Shown piece after piece: positions 11,954 to 36,014 of a DNA stretch of 36,014 nt. Numbering within the stretch: the stretch's first letter is position 1; every line of letters starts with the position of its first letter. The stretch is from Parcubacteria group bacterium Gr01-1014_2 (GTDB lineage Bacteria > Patescibacteriota > Minisyncoccia > 2-02-FULL-40-12), in NCBI GenBank assembly GCA_007376425.1, contig VMGG01000002.1:1-36014 (forward strand), read 5' to 3'. The notes beneath the pieces were generated by a model that worked only from the letters and a program-made list of their open reading frames with translations, did not search any database and had not been told where the DNA came from. A program made the position numbers and the translations under genes.

Positions 11954-11974
11954 GAAAATGTTAAGCTATTGGCG

Positions 11975-14194
11975 ATGGGAAGAAAGAAAAAAAAGCTCAA
12001 AAAAGATAGTGACGACGAAAAACCGAAGAAGGGTTCACGGGTAAGTTCTGAAACCCAAAACAGTGTTTTTGCAGTATCCTGCTTTGCGATATCTGTCCTT
12101 ACGGTCTTAAGTTTTTTAGGTCATGGCGGCCGGGCCGGCGATTTATTTAATAATTCTTCTCACACTTTATTCGGCTGGGGCTTTTTTATAATTCCGATTG
12201 CTTTTCTTTTGCTTGGCGTTTCTTTTCTTAGATTTTATAGCCGTGAATCGAAAACCCCCTCAACTTTAGGAGTTGGTATTTTTGTTTTAGCGATTTTGGG
12301 GATATTTTTTATTGTTGGCAATGACCAGATTTTTCAAGACCGAGTCAGTCAAAGCGGTTATCTTGGCGTTATTTTAGGTTACCCCTTGCTTAATCTTTTT
12401 GGCTTTGCCTCCTCCTTGATTATTTTACTGGCCGCGATTTTCATTTCATTCCTGGTTTCAATGGATATACCCTTGCATCGGTTGATTTTTAAGGAAAAAG
12501 AGGAGAATGAAGAAGGGGCTGGCCGAGATTTAAAAGAGGATGAATTGATAATTAGACAAGGAGGCAGTGGAGTTAAGCCGGTTTTTGAAGCGAAAGCTAT
12601 AAAAATGGAGAAAAGGAATGATCCCTCCAACGCTCGAGCTACAGAGGGCGAGGAGGATGAAGAGCCGGAATTCAATATTAAAATTACAAGCCGGAAATGG
12701 AAATTGCCGCCGCTTGATCTATTAAGGAGCGACAGCGATGTCCCCAGGGCCGGTGATGTTGCTGCTTCGGCCGCGGTAATCAGGAAAACGCTTTCAAATT
12801 TTGGAATTGATGTTGAGATGGGCGAGATAAATGTGGGGCCGACTGTAACCCAATACACTTTGCGGCCGGCTGTAGGAGTGAAGCTTTCAAAGATAACTTC
12901 TTTAAACAGCGATCTTGCTTTATCTTTGGCCAGCCATCCTATTCGGATTGAGGCGCCGATCCCGGGCAAATCCTTGGTTGGGATCGAAGTGCCAAACCGA
13001 AAAGCCGCCTTAGTCGGCTTGAAAAATCTTCTTGAGATTGACCAGTTCAAGGAAACCCCTTATTTTCTGCCTTTGGCTTTGGGCCGCGATGTGGCTGGTT
13101 ATCCTGTTTTTGGACCGCTTGAAAAAATGCCCCATCTTTTGATTGCCGGCGCCACGGGCAGCGGCAAGTCAGTGGCTATAAACTCAATTATTTTATCGTT
13201 GCTTTATAAGCATTCGCCTGACCTTTTGAAGTTCATAATGATTGACCCGAAGCGGGTTGAATTAAGTTTATATAACGGCATTCCTCATTTGATCACTCCG
13301 GTAATCGTTGAGAATAAAAAAGCGATCAATGCCCTTCGCTGGATGGTAAAAGAAATGGAAAGAAGATATGAGATGATTTCGCGTTCCCATGCCAGAGATA
13401 TTTTTTCATACAATTCAAAGCAGATTTCCAAGAAGCGGACGTTGATGCCTTTTATTGTTTTGATAATTGATGAACTCGCTGATCTCATGGCTGCTTATGG
13501 GCGAGATTTGGAAGGTTCAGTTGTCCGTCTGGCGCAGATGTCGCGGGCGGTCGGGGTTCATTTAATTGTTTCGACTCAAAGGCCTTCAGTCGAAGTTATC
13601 ACTGGTTTGATTAAAGCAAATATTACCTCGCGGGTCGCTTTTCAGGTGGCGAGCCAGGTTGATTCCAGAACCATTCTGGATATGTCCGGAGCCGAAAAAT
13701 TACTTGGTTCAGGCGATATGCTTTATCTGGCCGGCGATTCTGGCAAGCCTCGGCGGCTCCAAGGGCCTTTTGTTTCAGAAAAGGAAGTCAAGGGCGTGGT
13801 CAAATTCCTCAAGGACCAGGAATATGAAGTCGAGGAGGAAAAAATTGGCGAAACATTAGAAGAATCATTAGCCCAAAGCATTGAAGGCGGTCCGTCTCAA
13901 GCCATTGGTAGAGATTTTTTAGATGATGATGATTTATTATTTGGCGAAGCCAAAGAAACTGTTATTCAAGCTAAAAAAGCTTCCGCCTCTTTACTTCAGA
14001 GGCGATTACGGGTTGGCTATGCCCGGGCGGCTCGTCTTTTAGATATCCTTGAGGAAAAAGGAGTGATTGGTCCTCCTGATGGAGCCAAGCCGAGAGAAGT
14101 ACTGGTTAAAAGTGAAACTAACGAACCAATTATTGACGCTACTGTTGACGAAAAAGTTGACGTGAATGATGAAAACAGCGATACTTTAATATAA
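11975..14194 (+). CDS. ftsK: DNA translocase FtsK/SpoIIIE
   Basis: N-terminal TMs, PHLLIAGATGSGKS, IIDELADLM, gamma domain SLLQRRLRVGYARAAR; start ATG 11975 or TTG 11969. Confidence 0.96.
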   Translation: MGRKKKKLKKDSDDEKPKKGSRVSSETQNSVFAVSCFAISVLTVLSFLGHGGRAGDLFNNSSHTLFGWGFFIIPIAFLLLGVSFLRFYSRESKTPSTLGVGIFVLAILGIFFIVGNDQIFQDRVSQSGYLGVILGYPLLNLFGFASSLIILLAAIFISFLVSMDIPLHRLIFKEKEENEEGAGRDLKEDELIIRQGGSGVKPVFEAKAIKMEKRNDPSNARATEGEEDEEPEFNIKITSRKWKLPPLDLLRSDSDVPRAGDVAASAAVIRKTLSNFGIDVEMGEINVGPTVTQYTLRPAVGVKLSKITSLNSDLALSLASHPIRIEAPIPGKSLVGIEVPNRKAALVGLKNLLEIDQFKETPYFLPLALGRDVAGYPVFGPLEKMPHLLIAGATGSGKSVAINSIILSLLYKHSPDLLKFIMIDPKRVELSLYNGIPHLITPVIVENKKAINALRWMVKEMERRYEMISRSHARDIFSYNSKQISKKRTLMPFIVLIIDELADLMAAYGRDLEGSVVRLAQMSRAVGVHLIVSTQRPSVEVITGLIKANITSRVAFQVASQVDSRTILDMSGAEKLLGSGDMLYLAGDSGKPRRLQGPFVSEKEVKGVVKFLKDQEYEVEEEKIGETLEESLAQSIEGGPSQAIGRDFLDDDDLLFGEAKETVIQAKKASASLLQRRLRVGYARAARLLDILEEKGVIGPPDGAKPREVLVKSETNEPIIDATVDEKVDVNDENSDTLI

Positions 14195-14200
14195 TTTCTT

Positions 14201-14272
14201 AATTCGTATAATTAGTATCCATTAGTATATTAGTATCGATACCAATATACGAATTATACTAATAATACTAAT
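14201..14272. repeat. Inverted arrays of 8-10-mer repeats between ftsK and recA
   Basis: 4x ATT(A/C)GTAT then 4x ATAC(T/G/C)AAT, ending at recA GTG. Confidence 0.8.
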
Positions 14273-15292
14273 GTGATTGTTAAAAAAACCGATTCAAAAA
14301 CTTCAGACCGGGCAAAGCTAGTTGAAACCGCGGTAAAAGAGATTAGAGATAAATACGGCGAAGGGGCGATAATGAAGCTCGGTGAGGCGAGGCGGGTTGA
14401 TGTTGACGTTATTCCGACCGGTTCCATTTCTTTGGATATTGCTCTCGGGGTAATGGGCATGCCTCGGGGAAGAGTTATTGAAATCTACGGACCTGAAAGT
14501 TCTGGAAAGACGACCTTGGCTTTGCATGTTGTGGCTGAAGCCCAGAAGCGGGGAGGGCAAGCAGCTTTTGTTGATGCCGAGCACGCCTTAGATCCGGAGT
14601 ACGCTAAAAAAATCGGAGTCCGAATTGATGACTTATTGATTTCCCAGCCAGATCATGGCGAACAGGCTCTTGAAATAGTAGAGACTTTGATTAAGTCAGG
14701 GACAATGGATGTGATTGTGGTTGATTCAGTGGCGGCCTTGACTCCCAAAGCTGAAATTGAAGGGGATATGGGTCAGCAGCACATTGGGTTGCAAGCTAGG
14801 CTCATGTCTCATGCTCTTCGCAAGCTTACCGCCATAGTCGCTAAATCAAGGACCGTCTTGATTTTTATAAACCAGATTCGTCATCAGATCGGGGTGATGT
14901 TTGGAAACCCCGAAGTTACGCCGGGCGGCAAGGCTCTTAAGTTTTATTCTTCAATAAGAATAGATGTCCGCCGGATTGCCCAAGTCCAGTCAGGAGAAAA
15001 AATTATTGGCGGCCGGCACCGGGCCAAAGTGGTTAAAAACAAAGTTGCCCCGCCCTTCAGGCAGGCTGAATTTGATATTTTGTATAACGAGGGCATTTCC
15101 CGTCTTTCTGATTTGGTTAATTCAGGAGTTAAATACGGAATTTTGGCTCGTTCAGGCGCTTGGTATAATTTTGATAAAATAAAACTTGGGCAAGGTTTGG
15201 AAAGCGCCCGGAGCTTTTTGAAAGACAACGAAAAAATGGCTCAAGAGATTGCAAAAAAAGTGAGAGATTCGGCGTTTAAGGAAGAAGGCTAA
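14273..15292 (+). CDS. recA: Recombinase A
   Basis: [35 protein letters not shown]. Confidence 0.99.
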
Positions 15293-24622: not shown

Positions 24623-26419
24623 TTATTTTCTGACCCTCTTTGTTTCAATGTACCATTCAGCGACATTTACGAATCTTTCCGAAGGCAGTCCCATGAGATT
24701 AATTTCGAAGCCTTTTATTTTTTTGGCTTGGGGGTAGATGTAGTAAGGGCTGTATAAAAATATTGCCGGGAGATCCTCGATGACTAAATTCTGAAAATCA
24801 TTATATTTATTTGCCCGGATTACCGGGTTCAGCGATTGCCTTGCTTCTTCTAAAAGTTTATCAGCTCCGCTGGCATCATACAAAGCCAAGTTCAAACCAG
24901 GATCTTTTTTTTGGGAAGAATGCCAAAAGCTGAAAGGGTCTGGTTCAATATTTAAAACTTCGCCGAAAAGAAGCATTTGGTAAGTTCTTGGCTGAATATA
25001 ATTTTGCTGGAGTTCAATGACCGAAGCGGTGATTAAATCAATTTTCATTCCAACTGCTTCCCAATCTTTCTTAAGCTCGCCGCCGATAGCGACAAAGTCT
25101 TTTCTTAAAGGGACAACAAGCTGGATTTCCAACAGCCTATCGTCTTTTTCTCTTATTCCATCTCCATTTTTATCCTGCCAGCCCGAGTTTTCTAAAATTT
25201 GCCTCACAAAATCAGGATTATAATCGTATTTTTTGACGCTGTTTTCAAAGTCATCGAATATTTCAGGAAGAATAGGAGAATCAACCTTGAAACCGCGTCC
25301 ATAGATGCTTTCAATAATTTTATCCTTATTGACGGAATGAGCCAAGGCTAATCGAACATTTTTATCCGAAAGAACTTCGCTTTGGTTTTGGTTGAAAAAT
25401 ACGGCAAAGTATCTTGGAATTTTAAGCTCGTTAATTTTAACTTTTCCCGGAAACCTTAAGCCACTCAAGTTGTTTGGGCTAATTCCGGCTAGACTTTCCA
25501 CCCCGCTTAAATTGAAAGCCTGAATTAAATCTTCTTCACTGGTGTAAAAATTGAAATTTATCGATTCAATAAACGGGCCGTCCAAATAATAATTTTCATT
25601 GGCTGCCAGTTCGTAAGAAGTAATCCGTCCAAGCCTGTCTTTTTTTAATTTGAAAAATTTGTAAGGCCCGGTGCCAATTGGTTTTAGATTCAATTCGGAA
25701 AGAATAAAGTTCCCTGCCTTTATCTCTTTCCATAAATGGCTAGGTATTATTCCCAGGCTTAAGTTATTTATAAATTGGGCGTAAGGATTCTTAAGCCTGA
25801 ATTCAAGAGTCAGATCATCAATTTTTACTGTTTCTACTCCTTGCCAGTTAATTCTTTGGGGACTTGCAAAATCCTGGTTCTGGGCAATTTTCACCGTAAA
25901 AATAATGTCGTCAGCCGAAAAATTAATGCCGTCATGCCATTTTATGTTCTTTCTTAAATTGAAGCGATAGACAAGGCCATCATCGGAGATGCTGAAACTT
26001 TCAGCTAAATCAGAAATGAAATTTCCTTGGCCGTCATTTTTTAAAAGACCCGAGTAAATTAATTGGGCTAAATCTCGGTCAGTGTCAGTCTGTAAAAGCA
26101 AAGGGTTAATGAATCGGGGTTCGCCAATTAACCCTTCAGTGAATTCCCCCCCAAAATCAGGCTTGGCTTCAGTAATATTGAAATAATAACCTATCAGAAT
26201 GGCAAAGATAGAGCCGATAATTACCAGTGAGAGCCCGAGGATGATATATCTTTCTCTTTTAGATAAAAGTTTAGCCAGATATATTATCCGCTTTTTTTCA
26301 GGAAGAAAACTTTTCAGATATTTTTTCAGGAGGTTTTTTGTCTTCTTCCCAAAACTTTCTTTCTTGGAAGGTTTTTGACCCAAGCCTCCGGAATACAAAA
26401 ATTCAAGATCATCAGCCAA
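24623..26419 (-). CDS. Family 5 ABC transporter substrate-binding protein (OppA/DppA-like)
   Basis: LAESFSISDDGLVYRFNLR, WHDG, PIGTGPYK; start uncertain (TTG 26419 preferred because 26488-26420 is a repeat array). Confidence 0.88.
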   Translation of the reverse strand: MADDLEFLYSGGLGQKPSKKESFGKKTKNLLKKYLKSFLPEKKRIIYLAKLLSKRERYIILGLSLVIIGSIFAILIGYYFNITEAKPDFGGEFTEGLIGEPRFINPLLLQTDTDRDLAQLIYSGLLKNDGQGNFISDLAESFSISDDGLVYRFNLRKNIKWHDGINFSADDIIFTVKIAQNQDFASPQRINWQGVETVKIDDLTLEFRLKNPYAQFINNLSLGIIPSHLWKEIKAGNFILSELNLKPIGTGPYKFFKLKKDRLGRITSYELAANENYYLDGPFIESINFNFYTSEEDLIQAFNLSGVESLAGISPNNLSGLRFPGKVKINELKIPRYFAVFFNQNQSEVLSDKNVRLALAHSVNKDKIIESIYGRGFKVDSPILPEIFDDFENSVKKYDYNPDFVRQILENSGWQDKNGDGIREKDDRLLEIQLVVPLRKDFVAIGGELKKDWEAVGMKIDLITASVIELQQNYIQPRTYQMLLFGEVLNIEPDPFSFWHSSQKKDPGLNLALYDASGADKLLEEARQSLNPVIRANKYNDFQNLVIEDLPAIFLYSPYYIYPQAKKIKGFEINLMGLPSERFVNVAEWYIETKRVRK

Positions 26420-26422
26420 AGT

Positions 26423-26488
26423 TAGTAAGTAGAAAGTAGTAAGTAGAAAGTAGAATAAAGACTCTAAATTCCATTTTCTAATTTCCAA
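26423..26488. repeat. Inverted heptamer arrays between secG and the OppA-like gene
   Basis: TAGTAAG/TAGAAAG-type x5 facing TTTCTAA/TTTCCAA-type x4. Confidence 0.75.
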
Positions 26489-26491
26489 TCA

Positions 26492-26704
26492 TCAAATAAA
26501 TAATCTCAAGACCGAGATAAGTATAAAAAGTGCGGCTAAAACTATTGTCGCTACGAAAATTCCTTTTTCAATTCCGCGCCTCGTGGCGTAAACCGAACCT
26601 TCTCCGCCAAAAACACCGGAAAGTCCGCCGCCACGCTGTTGAAGTAAAATTGTGATAATTAAAAGAATTGAGACTAAAATTTGGACAATATCTAGTAGAG
26701 TGAT
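26492..26704 (-). CDS. secG: Preprotein translocase subunit SecG (absent from ORF track; no canonical start)
   Basis: ITLLDIVQILVSILLIITILLQQRGGGLSGVFGGEGSVYATRRGIEKGIFVATIVLAALFILISVLRLFI*. Confidence 0.88.
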   Translation of the reverse strand: MTLLDIVQILVSILLIITILLQQRGGGLSGVFGGEGSVYATRRGIEKGIFVATIVLAALFILISVLRLFI

Positions 26705-26772
26705 GTCGAATGTCTAAGGTCTAAAGTCTAAAGCCTGAACAGCCTTAGTCATTAGACATTAGTCTTTAGTCA
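26704..26772. repeat. Inverted heptamer arrays upstream of secG
   Basis: nGTCTAA-type x5 facing TTAG(T/A)C(A/T) x4. Confidence 0.8.
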
Positions 26773-33818: not shown

Positions 33819-34373
33819 ATGGGAATATTAACTGTCGTTTTAATCATCGTCGCAGTTTTAATTGTCTGGCTTATCGGGACTTTTAATGTTTTAGTGGTTC
33901 GCCGGAATAGAGTGAAAGAGTCGTGGTCAGATATTGAGGTTCAGCTAAAGCGGCGATACGATTTGATTCCGAATTTGGTTAATATTGTAAAAGGGTACGC
34001 GGCTCATGAGCGGGGAGTTTTTGAAGAAGTGACTCAAGCTCGTTCGATGGCTATTGGCGCGAAGACTCCGGAAGAACATAGTAAGGCTGAAAATATATTG
34101 ACCGGCGCTTTAAAGCATTTATTTGCCGTGGCCGAAGCCTACCCGCAGCTCCGCGCCTCTGAAAATTTCCGTGAGCTTCAAATGGAACTTTCTGATACGG
34201 AAAATAAAATTCAGGCCGCCCGAAGATTTTATAATTCAACCGTTTTAGATCTCAATACTTCAATTGAGCAGTTCCCGACCAATCTCGTTGCCGGAATGTT
34301 CGGTTTCAAGAAAGGTGAGTTCTTTGACCTGGAAAACGAACTTGAACACCAAAGTGTTAAAGTTCAGTTCTAA
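33819..34373 (+). CDS. lemA: LemA family protein
   Basis: WSDIEVQLKRRYDLIPNLV, AEAYPQLRASENF, ARRFYN. Confidence 0.96.
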   Translation: MGILTVVLIIVAVLIVWLIGTFNVLVVRRNRVKESWSDIEVQLKRRYDLIPNLVNIVKGYAAHERGVFEEVTQARSMAIGAKTPEEHSKAENILTGALKHLFAVAEAYPQLRASENFRELQMELSDTENKIQAARRFYNSTVLDLNTSIEQFPTNLVAGMFGFKKGEFFDLENELEHQSVKVQF

Positions 34374-34408
34374 TTGTTCTAAATGTTCTATCGCTTTGCT
34401 TGTTCTAA
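34365..34408 (+). repeat. Left 9-mer array (TTGTTCTAA-type x4)
   Basis: CAGTTCTAA TTGTTCTAA ATGTTCTAT ... TTGTTCTAA; includes the lemA stop. Confidence 0.85.
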
Positions 34409-34441
34409 TTGTGAAATTGTGAAAGGATTTCAAAGAATTTC

Positions 34442-34819
34442 ATGGAAAATAGGATAGAGTATGGATTTCAAAAACTTGAGGTATGGAAGCTTGCGAGAAA
34501 ACTTGTTAGCGAAATTTATAGAATTACGAAATTATTTCCCAAAGAAGAACAATTTTCTTTATCTTCGCAATTAAGAAGAGCAGCAATATCCGTGCCATTA
34601 AACATAGCTGAAGGCAGTGCTCGCAGAACTAAAAAAGATTTTGCTTCATTTATTAGAATTGCTATGGGTTCTTTACTAGAGGTTTATACTTGTATAGAGA
34701 TAGCAAACGATGAAAAATACATTAATATATCTGATTATAACAAAGTAAAGTCGCAGATTCAGGAAATTTACTTTAAGTTAGTTTCGTTGGATAAGTTTTT
34801 AACTGGTAAAAACAAGTAG
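34442..34819 (+). CDS. Four helix bundle protein (23S rRNA IVS / Avd-like family)
   Basis: FQKLEVWK, FPKEEQFSLSSQLRRAAISVPLNIAEG, FIRIAMGSLLE. Confidence 0.93.
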   Translation: MENRIEYGFQKLEVWKLARKLVSEIYRITKLFPKEEQFSLSSQLRRAAISVPLNIAEGSARRTKKDFASFIRIAMGSLLEVYTCIEIANDEKYINISDYNKVKSQIQEIYFKLVSLDKFLTGKNK

Positions 34820-34851
34820 AACAACTAGAACAAATTGAACAATTAGAACAA
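34816..34851 (-). repeat. Right 9-mer array (TTAGAACAA-type x4), inverse of the left array
   Basis: GTAGAACAA CTAGAACAA ATTGAACAA TTAGAACAA; spans the cargo stop to the A of the htpX ATG. Confidence 0.88.
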
Positions 34852-35735
34852 TGAATATCTATACTCATAAATCTTCCAACATCCGGAAAACATGGCTCTT
34901 AATCAGCCTGTTTTTGGTTTTGATAATTTTTATCGGCTGGGCGGTAAGTTTAGTTTTTGAAAATCCGGTTATTCTTTATGTCGCCGTCTCCTTTGGTTTG
35001 ATAATGAATATGCTTGCTTACTGGTTTTCGGATAAAATCGCTTTATCAATTGCCCGAGCCAAACCGGTTGAGCGCAGAGAACTGTCGGAACTTTATAACA
35101 TCGTAGAAAACTTGAGCATTACCGCTGGCTTACCGATGCCTAAGGTCTATATCATATCGGAGCCGCAGATAAATGCTTTTGCCACGGGCCGGAACCCGAA
35201 GAATTCGGCCGTGGCTGTAACTGCGGGCGCTTTGCAAAAATTAAATCGCAATGAATTAGAAGGGGTTTTAGCTCATGAATTGAGCCATATTGGCAACCGT
35301 GATATCTTAGTTTCCACTATTGCTGTAGTTTTGTCCGGAGTGATAGCAATGATTGCCGACATATTTTTAAGAATGATGTTTTGGTCAAATAATGAAAGAA
35401 AAAGTGGGCCGATGGTTTTAATTATGGCAATTGCCGCGGTGATTCTTGCGCCTTTTGCAGCCATGCTTTTGCGAATGGCAGTTTCCAGAAAAAGAGAATT
35501 CTTGGCTGATGCTTCAGGTGCTTTACTTACCCGCTATCCTGATGGCCTGGCTTCGGCCCTTGAAAAAATTGGTCAAGACAGTAATCTAATGAGGTCAGCT
35601 TCTGATGCCACCGCTCATTTGTACATATCCAATCCGTTTAAAGGGAAGGAAAGAACAAGCTGGTTTGTCCGTTTATTCATGACGCATCCTCCTTTAGAAG
35701 AACGAATAAGAATACTAAGAGGAATGCGTGTATAA
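34851..35735 (+). CDS. htpX: Zn metalloprotease HtpX (M48)
   Basis: NAFATGRNP, AHELSH, SRKREFLADA, THPPLEERI. Confidence 0.97.
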   Translation: MNIYTHKSSNIRKTWLLISLFLVLIIFIGWAVSLVFENPVILYVAVSFGLIMNMLAYWFSDKIALSIARAKPVERRELSELYNIVENLSITAGLPMPKVYIISEPQINAFATGRNPKNSAVAVTAGALQKLNRNELEGVLAHELSHIGNRDILVSTIAVVLSGVIAMIADIFLRMMFWSNNERKSGPMVLIMAIAAVILAPFAAMLLRMAVSRKREFLADASGALLTRYPDGLASALEKIGQDSNLMRSASDATAHLYISNPFKGKERTSWFVRLFMTHPPLEERIRILRGMRV

Positions 35736-35928: not shown

Positions 35929-36014
35929 GGAAGGGTGCGAGAGTGGTTTAATCGAACGGCTTGGAAAGCCGTGCCCGTTTTACGGGCTCGTGGGTTCAAA
36001 TCCCACCCCTTCCG
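35929..36014 (+). tRNA. tRNA-Ser(GGA)
   Basis: GGAAGGG/CCCTTCC acceptor stem, ACGGC-TTGGAAA-GCCGT, long variable arm, GGTTCAAATCC. Confidence 0.95.

Follow-up and report, generated by a model that had tools for sequence, protein, structure and literature searches.

Gene content and repeats of the lemA-htpX junction

The DNA analysed here, hereafter the window, is the stretch of 36,014 nucleotides that covers positions 1 to 36,014 of contig VMGG01000002.1 (C20 in our numbering) of Parcubacteria group bacterium Gr01-1014_2, whose genome assembly (GCA_007376425.1; G000) comprises 545 kb on 37 contigs. Near the end of the window, lemA and htpX are separated by a small gene of the PF05635/TIGR02436 family (23S_rRNA_IVP, four helix bundle; hereafter IVP), which lies between two inverted arrays of short tandem repeats (Table 1). 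We refer to these arrays as arms, and to the arms and the gene together as the cassette; G, C and L numbers denote genomes, contigs of the source genome and loci, respectively. The stretch is present in three DNA runs of one groundwater metagenome study.

Table 1. Features of the lemA-htpX locus and cargo-free array hairpins of the source genome; positions are those of the window unless a contig is named
Feature	Position	Strand	Description
lemA	33819..34373	+	184 aa; PF04011, 5.9e-61; stop TAA 34371-34373
Left arm	34365..34408	+	four 9-mer units of TTGTTCTAA type, interrupted by CGCTTTGC (34392-34399)
Spacer from left arm to IVP start	34409..34441	+	two TTGTGAAA units, then a purine-rich AAAGGA stretch
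IVP cargo	34442..34819	+	125 aa; PF05635, 9e-38; stop TAG 34817-34819
Right arm	34811..34851	+	four 9-mer units of TTAGAACAA type; includes the IVP stop
htpX	34851..35735	+	294 aa; M48 peptidase; PF01435, 2.6e-34
Cargo-free 9-mer-array hairpin	14195..14272	.	fills the junction between ORFs 11969-14194 and 14273-15292
Other copies of the 78-nt element	C6:17703, C12:4676, C19:10962, C21:29146, C26:519, C28:19917		
Cargo-free 7-mer-array hairpin	26703..26772	.	GTCTAAA / TTAGTCA types; fold z = -3.5 / -3.4

A reading of the letters alone (the sequence-only reading) had placed the start of the left array at the lemA stop codon and had seen the right array extend from the cargo stop as far as the A of the htpX ATG, and this observation was confirmed to the base. 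The lemA gene ends with TTC TAA (34368-34373), and its last three codons with the stop form the first unit of the left arm (CAGTTCTAA, 34365-34373), which is followed by TTGTTCTAA (34374-34382), ATGTTCTAT (34383-34391), a break of 8 nt and a second TTGTTCTAA (34400-34408). The resulting LemA C-terminus, ...KVQF*, agrees with the ...KV.F* of relatives. The right-arm units extend over 34816-34851 and comprise GTAGAACAA (34816-34824, containing the IVP stop), CTAGAACAA, ATTGAACAA and TTAGAACAA (34843-34851), the last A of which is the A of the htpX ATG; htpX itself lacks an alanine codon 2 that is present in all six relatives of the same family. A repeat scan detected four copies at 9-nt spacing in the right array and three in the left, and Tandem Repeats Finder (TRF) reported 5.2 and 4.7 copies of period 9 in the two arrays. 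The best inverted pair between them spans 24 nt at 88% (34367-34390 / 34826-34849). In the spacer, TRF detected 2.2 copies of period 8 (34407-34424, the TTGTGAAA units), and the AAAGGA stretch is a possible ribosome-binding site. No promoter or terminator consensus was found above chance inside the cassette.

The cargo protein

Genes of the PF05635/TIGR02436 family are very widespread; the family has been crystallised twice and is related to Avd, the accessory protein of diversity-generating retroelements (DGRs). To our knowledge, it has no known function. The cargo protein scores 129.2 bits with PF05635 (cut-off 33.8) and 119.2 bits with TIGR02436 (cut-off 24). Its AlphaFold model (pLDDT 94.9) exhibits four long helices and superimposes closely on Xcc0516 (2GSC; TM scores 0.90/0.97, root-mean-square deviation 0.7, profile match 2.5e-36) and on BT_0352 (2RLD; TM score 0.78). 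The similarity to Avd (4DWL, 8UB7, 8UBB and 8UBE) is looser, with query-normalised TM scores of 0.74-0.80, and both the Avd equivalog model NF033474 (26.6 bits) and the bAvd/Avd-type PF22296 (25.3 bits) remain under their cut-offs of 80 and 40, respectively. We therefore assign the cargo to the IVP family and not to Avd. The sequence-only reading had assigned the gene to the family of 23S intervening sequences and noted a resemblance to Avd; family and fold are indeed the same, and the Avd likeness is the looser of the two.

The family motif R-x3-S-x3-N-x2-E, given as GxxRxxxSxxxNxxE in the available part of PMC3936711, is well represented across 28 sequences, with R46, S50 and N54 invariant and E57 nearly so; the position of the consensus glycine is occupied by Q43 here. 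Both 2GSC and 2RLD contain five chains, and the solved relatives are described as ring-shaped pentamers (PMC4990558 and PMC3936711, available parts). A scan of viral contigs yielded no relative, and PADLOC returned no match.

Pairing of the two arms

To score the arms of a gene, we took its two flanks, determined their best local inverted repeat and compared this with shifted positions in the same locus. The IVP flanks score 32, against a maximum of 20 at 90 shifted positions, and this score ranks third or fourth (a tie) among the 542 ORF-genes (genes called as open reading frames, ORFs) of the source genome. The predicted RNA duplex of the arms, which pairs 34361-34405 with 34810-34857, has an energy of -37.3 kcal/mol; shuffled arms reach -15.9 +/- 3.4 kcal/mol, with none of 500 shuffles attaining the observed value. 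The advantage shrinks to only about 2 standard deviations when 220 unshuffled positional controls from the window are taken as reference (control minimum -48.7 kcal/mol). The fold of the 511-nt segment has a z-score of -3.4, and none of 100 shuffles folds as well. The bare 9-mer, with at most one mismatch, is not enriched across the window: it matches 20 times, with an expectation of 15.6, and 14 of 100 shuffles give at least as many matches.

The sequence-only reading had suggested that pairing of the arrays places the lemA stop beside the htpX start. This is borne out by the predicted fold and duplex, in which both codons lie at the base of the stem, and the same geometry recurs in the 82 loci with clear arms described below.

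Absence of the gene from the junction in relatives

Of 61 related genomes, 57 yielded LemA, and the loci of 29 relatives were inspected. The IVP gene is missing from the lemA-htpX junction in all 29. The two genes abut in the six genomes of the same family: the lemA-htpX spacer measures -1 to 6 nt in five of them, as opposed to 477 nt here, and in the genome of the same genus it measures about 57 nt and holds a GC hairpin. Judged by this comparison, the IVP gene is an insertion at the lemA-htpX junction, as the sequence-only reading had supposed, and the gene is not stably conserved at this site.

IVPs that are 55-68% identical to ours and are flanked by similar units fill the same htpX junction in metagenome contigs and in genomes of more distant lineages labelled as Patescibacteria; a gene other than lemA lies upstream in three of these loci. 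The LemA and HtpX proteins of these carriers are 59-66% and 50-59% identical to those of the source genome, while those of the order relatives without the cassette are 67-87% and 59-88% identical. As closer relatives are empty and distant lineages are filled with a similar IVP, either lateral arrival or several precise losses are needed, and the sequence comparison leads us to favour lateral arrival at the same htpX junction. A donor recombination tract was sought in the 3' end of lemA and the 5' end of htpX and none was found; both are family-like, the lost codon 2 of htpX being the only change.

The junction also holds other material. Four relatives (L019, L021, L025 and L032) carry inserts of 190-1065 nt without an IVP or obvious arrays, and the insert of L019 (602 nt) begins with an ATG-led reading frame.

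Inverted arrays around the family

PF05635 matches were obtained in 71 of 105 genomes of the order, with up to eight per genome, and none in the relative of the same genus. No shifted control scores as high as the true position of the IVP in 23 of 31 loci of the order, in 55 of 76 loci across phyla (Patescibacteria, Bacteroidota, Gemmatimonadota, Planctomycetota, Chloroflexota, Armatimonadota, Melainabacteria-type and others) and in 34 of 54 further metagenome loci, from which seven loci with an ORF identical to earlier loci had been dropped. The controls were not beaten in four loci from genomes labelled as DPANN archaea. As a baseline, a flank score of at least 24 is reached by six of the 542 ORF-genes of the source genome (1.1%) and by 21 of the 31 IVP loci of the order. 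This survey of flanks, which the sequence-only reading had named as a check, thus reveals a strong enrichment for inverted arrays. Among the high scorers of the source genome, arms made of tandem arrays occur only at the IVP; the others (a trpS-like ORF, a YerC/TrpR-like ORF, a C35 ORF and a GIY-YIG ORF) have palindromic operators or terminators, or simple repeats. Clear misses in the source genome are its second IVP copy (L002) and an Avd-like ORF (L003).

The arms are complementary within a locus: over 109 loci, the arms of the same locus match at 27.6, compared with 14.3 +/- 3.8 for the arms of other loci. The units vary in sequence from locus to locus, with a period mostly of 7 nt, then of 8 and 9, and typically 3-5 units per arm. 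In the 82 loci with clear arms, the median arm length is 28 nt and the layout is regular, with medians as follows: the left arm starts at -1 nt relative to the point where the upstream stop codon ends, 22 nt separate the left arm from the IVP ATG, the right arm starts 2 nt past the IVP stop, and the downstream start codon lies 9 nt past the right arm. Where the neighbours are co-directional (82 neighbourhoods), the IVP shares their orientation in 73.

A number of bracketed genes of other kinds, or in other places, were also observed. In L110, the 5' part of a 16S rRNA gene holds an IVP ORF (1501-1875) with flanking arrays; the match to the bacterial small-subunit rRNA model (SSU_rRNA_bacteria, 1835-2115) has a score of 35.7 bits, which is below the gathering score, with E = 3e-8. 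In the source genome, an 82-aa GIY-YIG-like ORF (C2:395-643) lies between short inverted repeats (flank score 28) and may be a separate small mobile gene. An rplV-like ORF (C6:7988-8700) lies between ATTTAAA-type arrays, and a pilM/N/O-like block of four ORFs (C29:1050-3650) between inverted repeats of about 70 nt, which shows that arrays at successive junctions can bracket ordinary genes too.

Association of the arrays with the gene

We compared 5,564 pairs of loci located at different junctions and found that the arms become more similar as the identity of the IVPs rises. Arrays are shared in 28% of the 25 pairs with at least 65% IVP identity and in 0.1-0.2% of those below 45%; L185 and L195, with IVPs 67% identical at different junctions in different families, are an example. 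An IVP of 48% identity in a genome labelled as Nitrospira is flanked by the arms of the window, the break ATCGCTTYGCTTGTTC included, and the interruption ATCGCTTYGCTTGTTC of the left arm is common to L064 and L071. Since similar IVPs share arrays at different junctions, the arrays are not copied from the target. By these comparisons, they belong to the element and move with the gene, and the more convincing account of the likeness between the array and the TTCTAA end of lemA is that the array supplies the stop or overlaps it. The ratio of nonsynonymous to synonymous substitution rates (dN/dS) is 0.00-0.22 in 12 IVP pairs, two more pairs being saturated, which indicates purifying selection on the IVP ORF.

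The junction upstream of dnaX, for which 30 loci of one family were classed by eye, exhibits a range of states. Two loci hold a full cassette, seven are tight (spacer of at most 15 nt), about five contain array-only hairpins, and four contain GC-rich terminator-like hairpins. Another eleven have plain spacers of 24-35 nt (five), inserts of 309-838 nt (five) or a single unclear spacer of 66 nt. In the remaining locus, L179, the arrays enclose a remnant of 27 aa of an IVP N-terminus (tblastn E = 0.003, 48% identity) and match those of a full cassette at the dnaX junction (41, reversed control 26). The two loci with a full cassette, L047 and L055 (= L153/L155), come from one genus and have DnaX proteins that are 85% identical, yet their IVPs are only 46% identical and their arrays differ, which suggests independent occupation or replacement.

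Cargo-free hairpins at the lemA-htpX junction of three genomes (G028, G037 and G043) match IVP arrays elsewhere at 45-54, compared with 24-27 for the reversed control, and one of the IVP cassettes with the same units lies in G037 itself. Overall, four of nine cargo-free junction hairpins of relatives (L022, L023, L028 and L179) clearly exceed the reversed control, and L174 exceeds it moderately. Cassettes can lose their ORF, leaving array-only hairpins.

Cargo-free arrays in the window and the genome

The sequence-only reading had regarded the cargo-free arrays elsewhere in the window as footprints of the cassette. The analysis does not bear this out: their units are unlike those of the cassette, and one of them belongs to a family that is itself a dispersed insertion. 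The hairpin at 14195-14272 is a 78-nt palindrome with 9-mer units of ATTAGTATC and TATACGAAT types; it is one of seven near-identical copies in the genome, which occur in both orientations and always at gene ends, and is missing from the same junction in all five relatives of the family. The second hairpin, with 7-mer units, has at least two similar copies in the genome, at C1:2015 and C30:7674. The most fitting view of the cargo-free arrays of the window is that of independent hairpin elements built along the same general lines, resembling miniature inverted-repeat transposable elements, or MITEs. A unit repertoire common to the cargo-free arrays of the source genome and IVP arms was considered and dropped, the reversed control not being exceeded.

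Short-period arrays are frequent in the source genome. We counted 139 with a period of 6-10 nt in the 545 kb (for example C2:6599, C10:18351, C28:14076 and C28:43894), many of which consist of four perfect heptamers (AAAATCC, AATTGAA, AATTTTC, AGTAAGT). About 17 give rise to cargo-free hairpins, the arms of which are separated by 9-103 nt. The window also contains an AAAGTAG/TAAGTAG array of five copies (26418-26455) where the minus-strand ORF 24623-26488 has its 5' end; this array has no inverted partner close to it.

Proposed nature of the cassette

With regard to the whole of these observations, we hold with moderate confidence that the IVP gene of the window is part of a laterally acquired cassette of the intervening-sequence (IVS) type, the arms of which fold into a stem that closes at the stop and the start of the neighbouring genes. 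The same wrapping around most IVP relatives across bacteria suggests a mobile gene cassette of a kind not described so far, and IVS-type anatomy is, over the loci compared here, the normal state of the IVP family outside rRNA too.

The cassette consists, in order, of a left tandem arm, a short spacer with a putative ribosome-binding site, the IVP ORF and an inverted right arm that begins at the stop of the ORF. It is carried in the sense orientation within the lemA-htpX transcription unit, exactly between the lemA stop and the htpX start. Pairing of the arms in the transcript would form a predicted stem of about 45 nt, with the cargo looped out and the stop and start of the neighbours meeting at the base. 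RNase III, a gene for which is present in the genome (C5:9277-9666), might then cut the stem and release the cargo RNA, as in rRNA IVSs. Alternatively, a ribosome ending on lemA might open the stem at its base and thereby expose the htpX start, so that translation coupling would be kept; this would preserve what relatives obtain from the overlapping TAATG at the lemA-htpX junction. The insertion would be tolerated owing to either the cutting of the stem or the retained coupling. What the comparisons establish is the anatomy, the polymorphism of the insertion, the architecture throughout the family, the joint inheritance of arrays and gene, and the selection acting on the ORF; we infer that the arms pair in vivo, that the stem is cut by RNase III or keeps translation coupled, and how the cassette moves.

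The sequence-only reading had noted that no transposase or reverse transcriptase (RT) lies nearby. This stands for the contig, which has none, but not for the genome, which has three RT genes (RVT_1) on other contigs (C2:9260-9868, C5:11975-12583 and C30:638-1234). No Y1/HUH transposase (PF01797) was found in the genome, which is 90% complete. The RVT_1 gene on C30 adjoins a weakly Avd-like ORF without arrays (L003, 1443-1787), and the two probably constitute a DGR.

Nevertheless, several points weigh against a laterally acquired, RNA-folding cassette. Filling of the same junction in distant lineages is also compatible with ancient presence and repeated precise loss. Paralogues within one genome are just 24-56% identical and have their own arrays each, and no recent transposition is seen; such divergence between copies implies that movement is rare or comes from outside. 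The ends of the cassette and target duplications could not be defined, and no mobility enzyme was identified. About 30% of the family members are without clear arms, including the second copy in the source genome. Within the arms, Watson-Crick pairs account for just 81% of the aligned positions, and the mismatches show a weak excess of G:U over A:C (83 and 63, p = 0.12; by locus 26 and 12). In addition, the cargo-free arrays of the source genome match IVP arms elsewhere at 35.1, with 31.5 for the reversed control, and are better in 11 of 17 cases.

Alternative explanations

The arms might instead act at the DNA level, as hairpins or cruciforms that are the substrate for movement, with the RNA stem as a by-product; the route would be recombination between array hairpins of the same unit, with exchange into cargo-free hairpins, or an unknown host enzyme. 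Such a role would fit the ability of cargo-free hairpins to multiply alone, as the 78-nt family has done, and the sharing of units between the hairpins of G028, G037 and G043 and IVP cassettes elsewhere. It would also fit the two dissimilar cassettes at one dnaX junction within a genus, the insignificance of the G:U excess, and the fact that the units are permuted between the arms and not strictly mirrored. However, the sense bias and the precise closure at the stop and start of the neighbours suggest a role in the transcript, a Y1/HUH transposase is missing from the genome as far as it is complete, and no cargo-free hairpin of the source genome has the units of the cassette, so that we regard this explanation as unlikely. 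A reading in which the tandem units are binding sites of the IVP protein, on DNA or RNA, forming two operator sets for autoregulation or protection of the transcript, is in line with the 3-5 units per arm and their period mostly of 7 nt, with the five-chain structures and ring-shaped pentamers mentioned above, and with the way in which the array type tracks IVP similarity. The fold relative Avd, moreover, belongs to an RNA-protein complex according to the titles of its PDB entries. Yet the units are extremely diverse and the conserved residues of the protein invariant, a poor fit with sequence-specific recognition, and common descent explains the correlation between array and IVP equally well; binding sites are accordingly a quite improbable primary explanation.

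Two further explanations deserve very little credence. One is retro-mobility, in which an Avd-like IVP and the DGR reverse transcriptases of the genome would copy and re-insert the stem-bounded transcript. The Avd-like fold, the weak bAvd/Avd hidden Markov model (HMM) matches and the three RVT_1 genes, one beside an Avd-like ORF, would be in keeping with it, but the score with the Avd equivalog is far under its cut-off, the contig of the window carries no RT, and recent copies are lacking within genomes; we consider it very improbable. The other is that of an ordinary resident gene, the flanks of which have acquired repeats by replication slippage in AT-rich spacers, with neither mobility nor function. 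Short-period arrays are indeed common in the source genome, and heptamer repeats are over-represented in many bacteria (PMC4692102 and PMC4679880, available parts). This explanation is disfavoured and scarcely probable, given the absence of the gene from the site in the loci of all 29 relatives, the complementarity of arms within and not between loci, the same arrays around similar IVPs at different junctions, the occurrence of the pattern in GC-rich phyla as well, and the low baseline for other genes.

Comparison with known systems

The laterally acquired cassette that we favour resembles the rRNA IVSs. As in the 23S rRNA IVSs of Leptospira and Coxiella that contain an S23p/IVP ORF, the family and fold of the protein are the same, and the ORF lies in the loop of a stem formed by terminal inverted repeats. 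The distribution of rRNA IVSs is likewise sporadic, and they have been called selfish. The Coxiella 23S IVS contains the same kind of ORF and has a 28-bp terminal stem that is cut by RNase III, with 2-3 tandem heptamers beside the ORF, the number of which varies between strains (PMC4990558, available part); the sequence-only reading, which had termed the element IVS-like, is in agreement with this terminal stem and these heptamers. The differences lie in the host RNA, in the arms and in the ORF. The cassette is hosted by an mRNA at the junction of two protein-coding genes and not by an rRNA helix: it is not inside an rRNA gene, the sole Rfam match in the locus (L001) being a tRNA, which lies at the contig end, 3' of htpX (35929-36014; 54.4 bits). 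Its arms are arrays on both sides. Its ORF is under purifying selection, as judged above, whereas decay is described for the ORF of Coxiella. Cutting by RNase III has been shown for the rRNA IVSs; for the cassette, it is only what we infer.

REPIN-RAYT systems consist of a single gene between inverted palindromic repeats, with cargo-free hairpin copies at gene ends elsewhere in the genome. The cassette is similar to this general description in that one gene is bracketed by inverted repeats and cargo-free hairpins occur elsewhere. In contrast, the flanked gene is an IVP with no known catalytic motif, in a genome without a detected Y1/HUH transposase; the arms consist of tandem units of 7-9 nt, and the dispersed hairpins of the source genome use other units than the IVP arms.

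With regard to short tandem arrays in intergenic DNA, the cyanobacterial short tandemly repeated repetitive (STRR) sequences are intergenic arrays of 7-nt units and share this feature with the cassette. The same applies to the GGGAATC heptamer arrays of Xanthomonas, which are intergenic and form 70-75 convergent pairs (PMC4692102), and to the intergenic TAACTGA arrays of Beggiatoaceae (PMC4679880). Both are often found directly 5' of start codons, and their lengths vary between close relatives; unlike for the cassette, no cargo gene is reported for them, and the IVP family is not mentioned in the available parts of these two papers.

Avd shares with the cargo the four-helix-bundle fold and a weak HMM relationship. 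The cargo differs in that it lies below the Avd model cut-off and no RT adjoins it, template and variable repeats not having been searched for. We know of no Avd genes that are flanked by arrays, and the Avd-like L003 of the source genome, unlike the array-flanked IVPs, is without them.

Like MITEs and the gene cassettes of integrons, the cassette is a small unit lying between genes with folded inverted repeats, as is usual for such promoterless or non-coding units. The 78-nt cargo-free family has the properties by which MITEs are recognised, namely seven near-identical short copies, inverted ends and presence/absence polymorphism. Unlike in MITEs and integron cassettes, no transposase or integrase partner was identified and the arms are internally repetitive; unlike integron cassettes, which have one attC each, the inverted repeats stand on both sides of a single ORF.

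IVP genes have been noted in other settings, inside cas operons, for example between cmr3 and cmr2 (PMC3936711, available part), and in rRNA insertions of bacteria of the candidate phyla radiation (CPR; PMC11270868, available part). In a full-text literature search that left most subscription journals and supplements uncovered, we found no paper tying IVP or four-helix-bundle genes outside rRNA to inverted flanking arrays. Such wrapping is a systematic feature that is ignored at present by gene callers, by CRISPR and repeat finders, and by operon predictions.

How rRNA intervening sequences arose is a question that has stood unanswered from the early 1990s onwards. The present analysis turns the question of whether they are selfish elements into one about a defined cassette with testable parts, namely the cutting or coupling at the stem, the binding of the arrays and the route to the junctions, and the cassette becomes a candidate source for intergenic heptamer arrays and hairpins. 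We tentatively raise a more general possibility, which for now seems doubtful: the IVP with its inverted arrays might be the autonomous form of a universal prokaryotic element found in places where it is tolerated at the RNA level, such as rRNA helices and operon junctions. The unexplained heptamer arrays and convergent pairs that have been on record for decades (STRR, GGGAATC, TAACTGA and the many hairpin arrays of small CPR-type genomes) would then be its cargo-free derivatives, and the ring-shaped IVP would recognise the arrays and mediate their maintenance or movement, perhaps with RTs of the DGR type.

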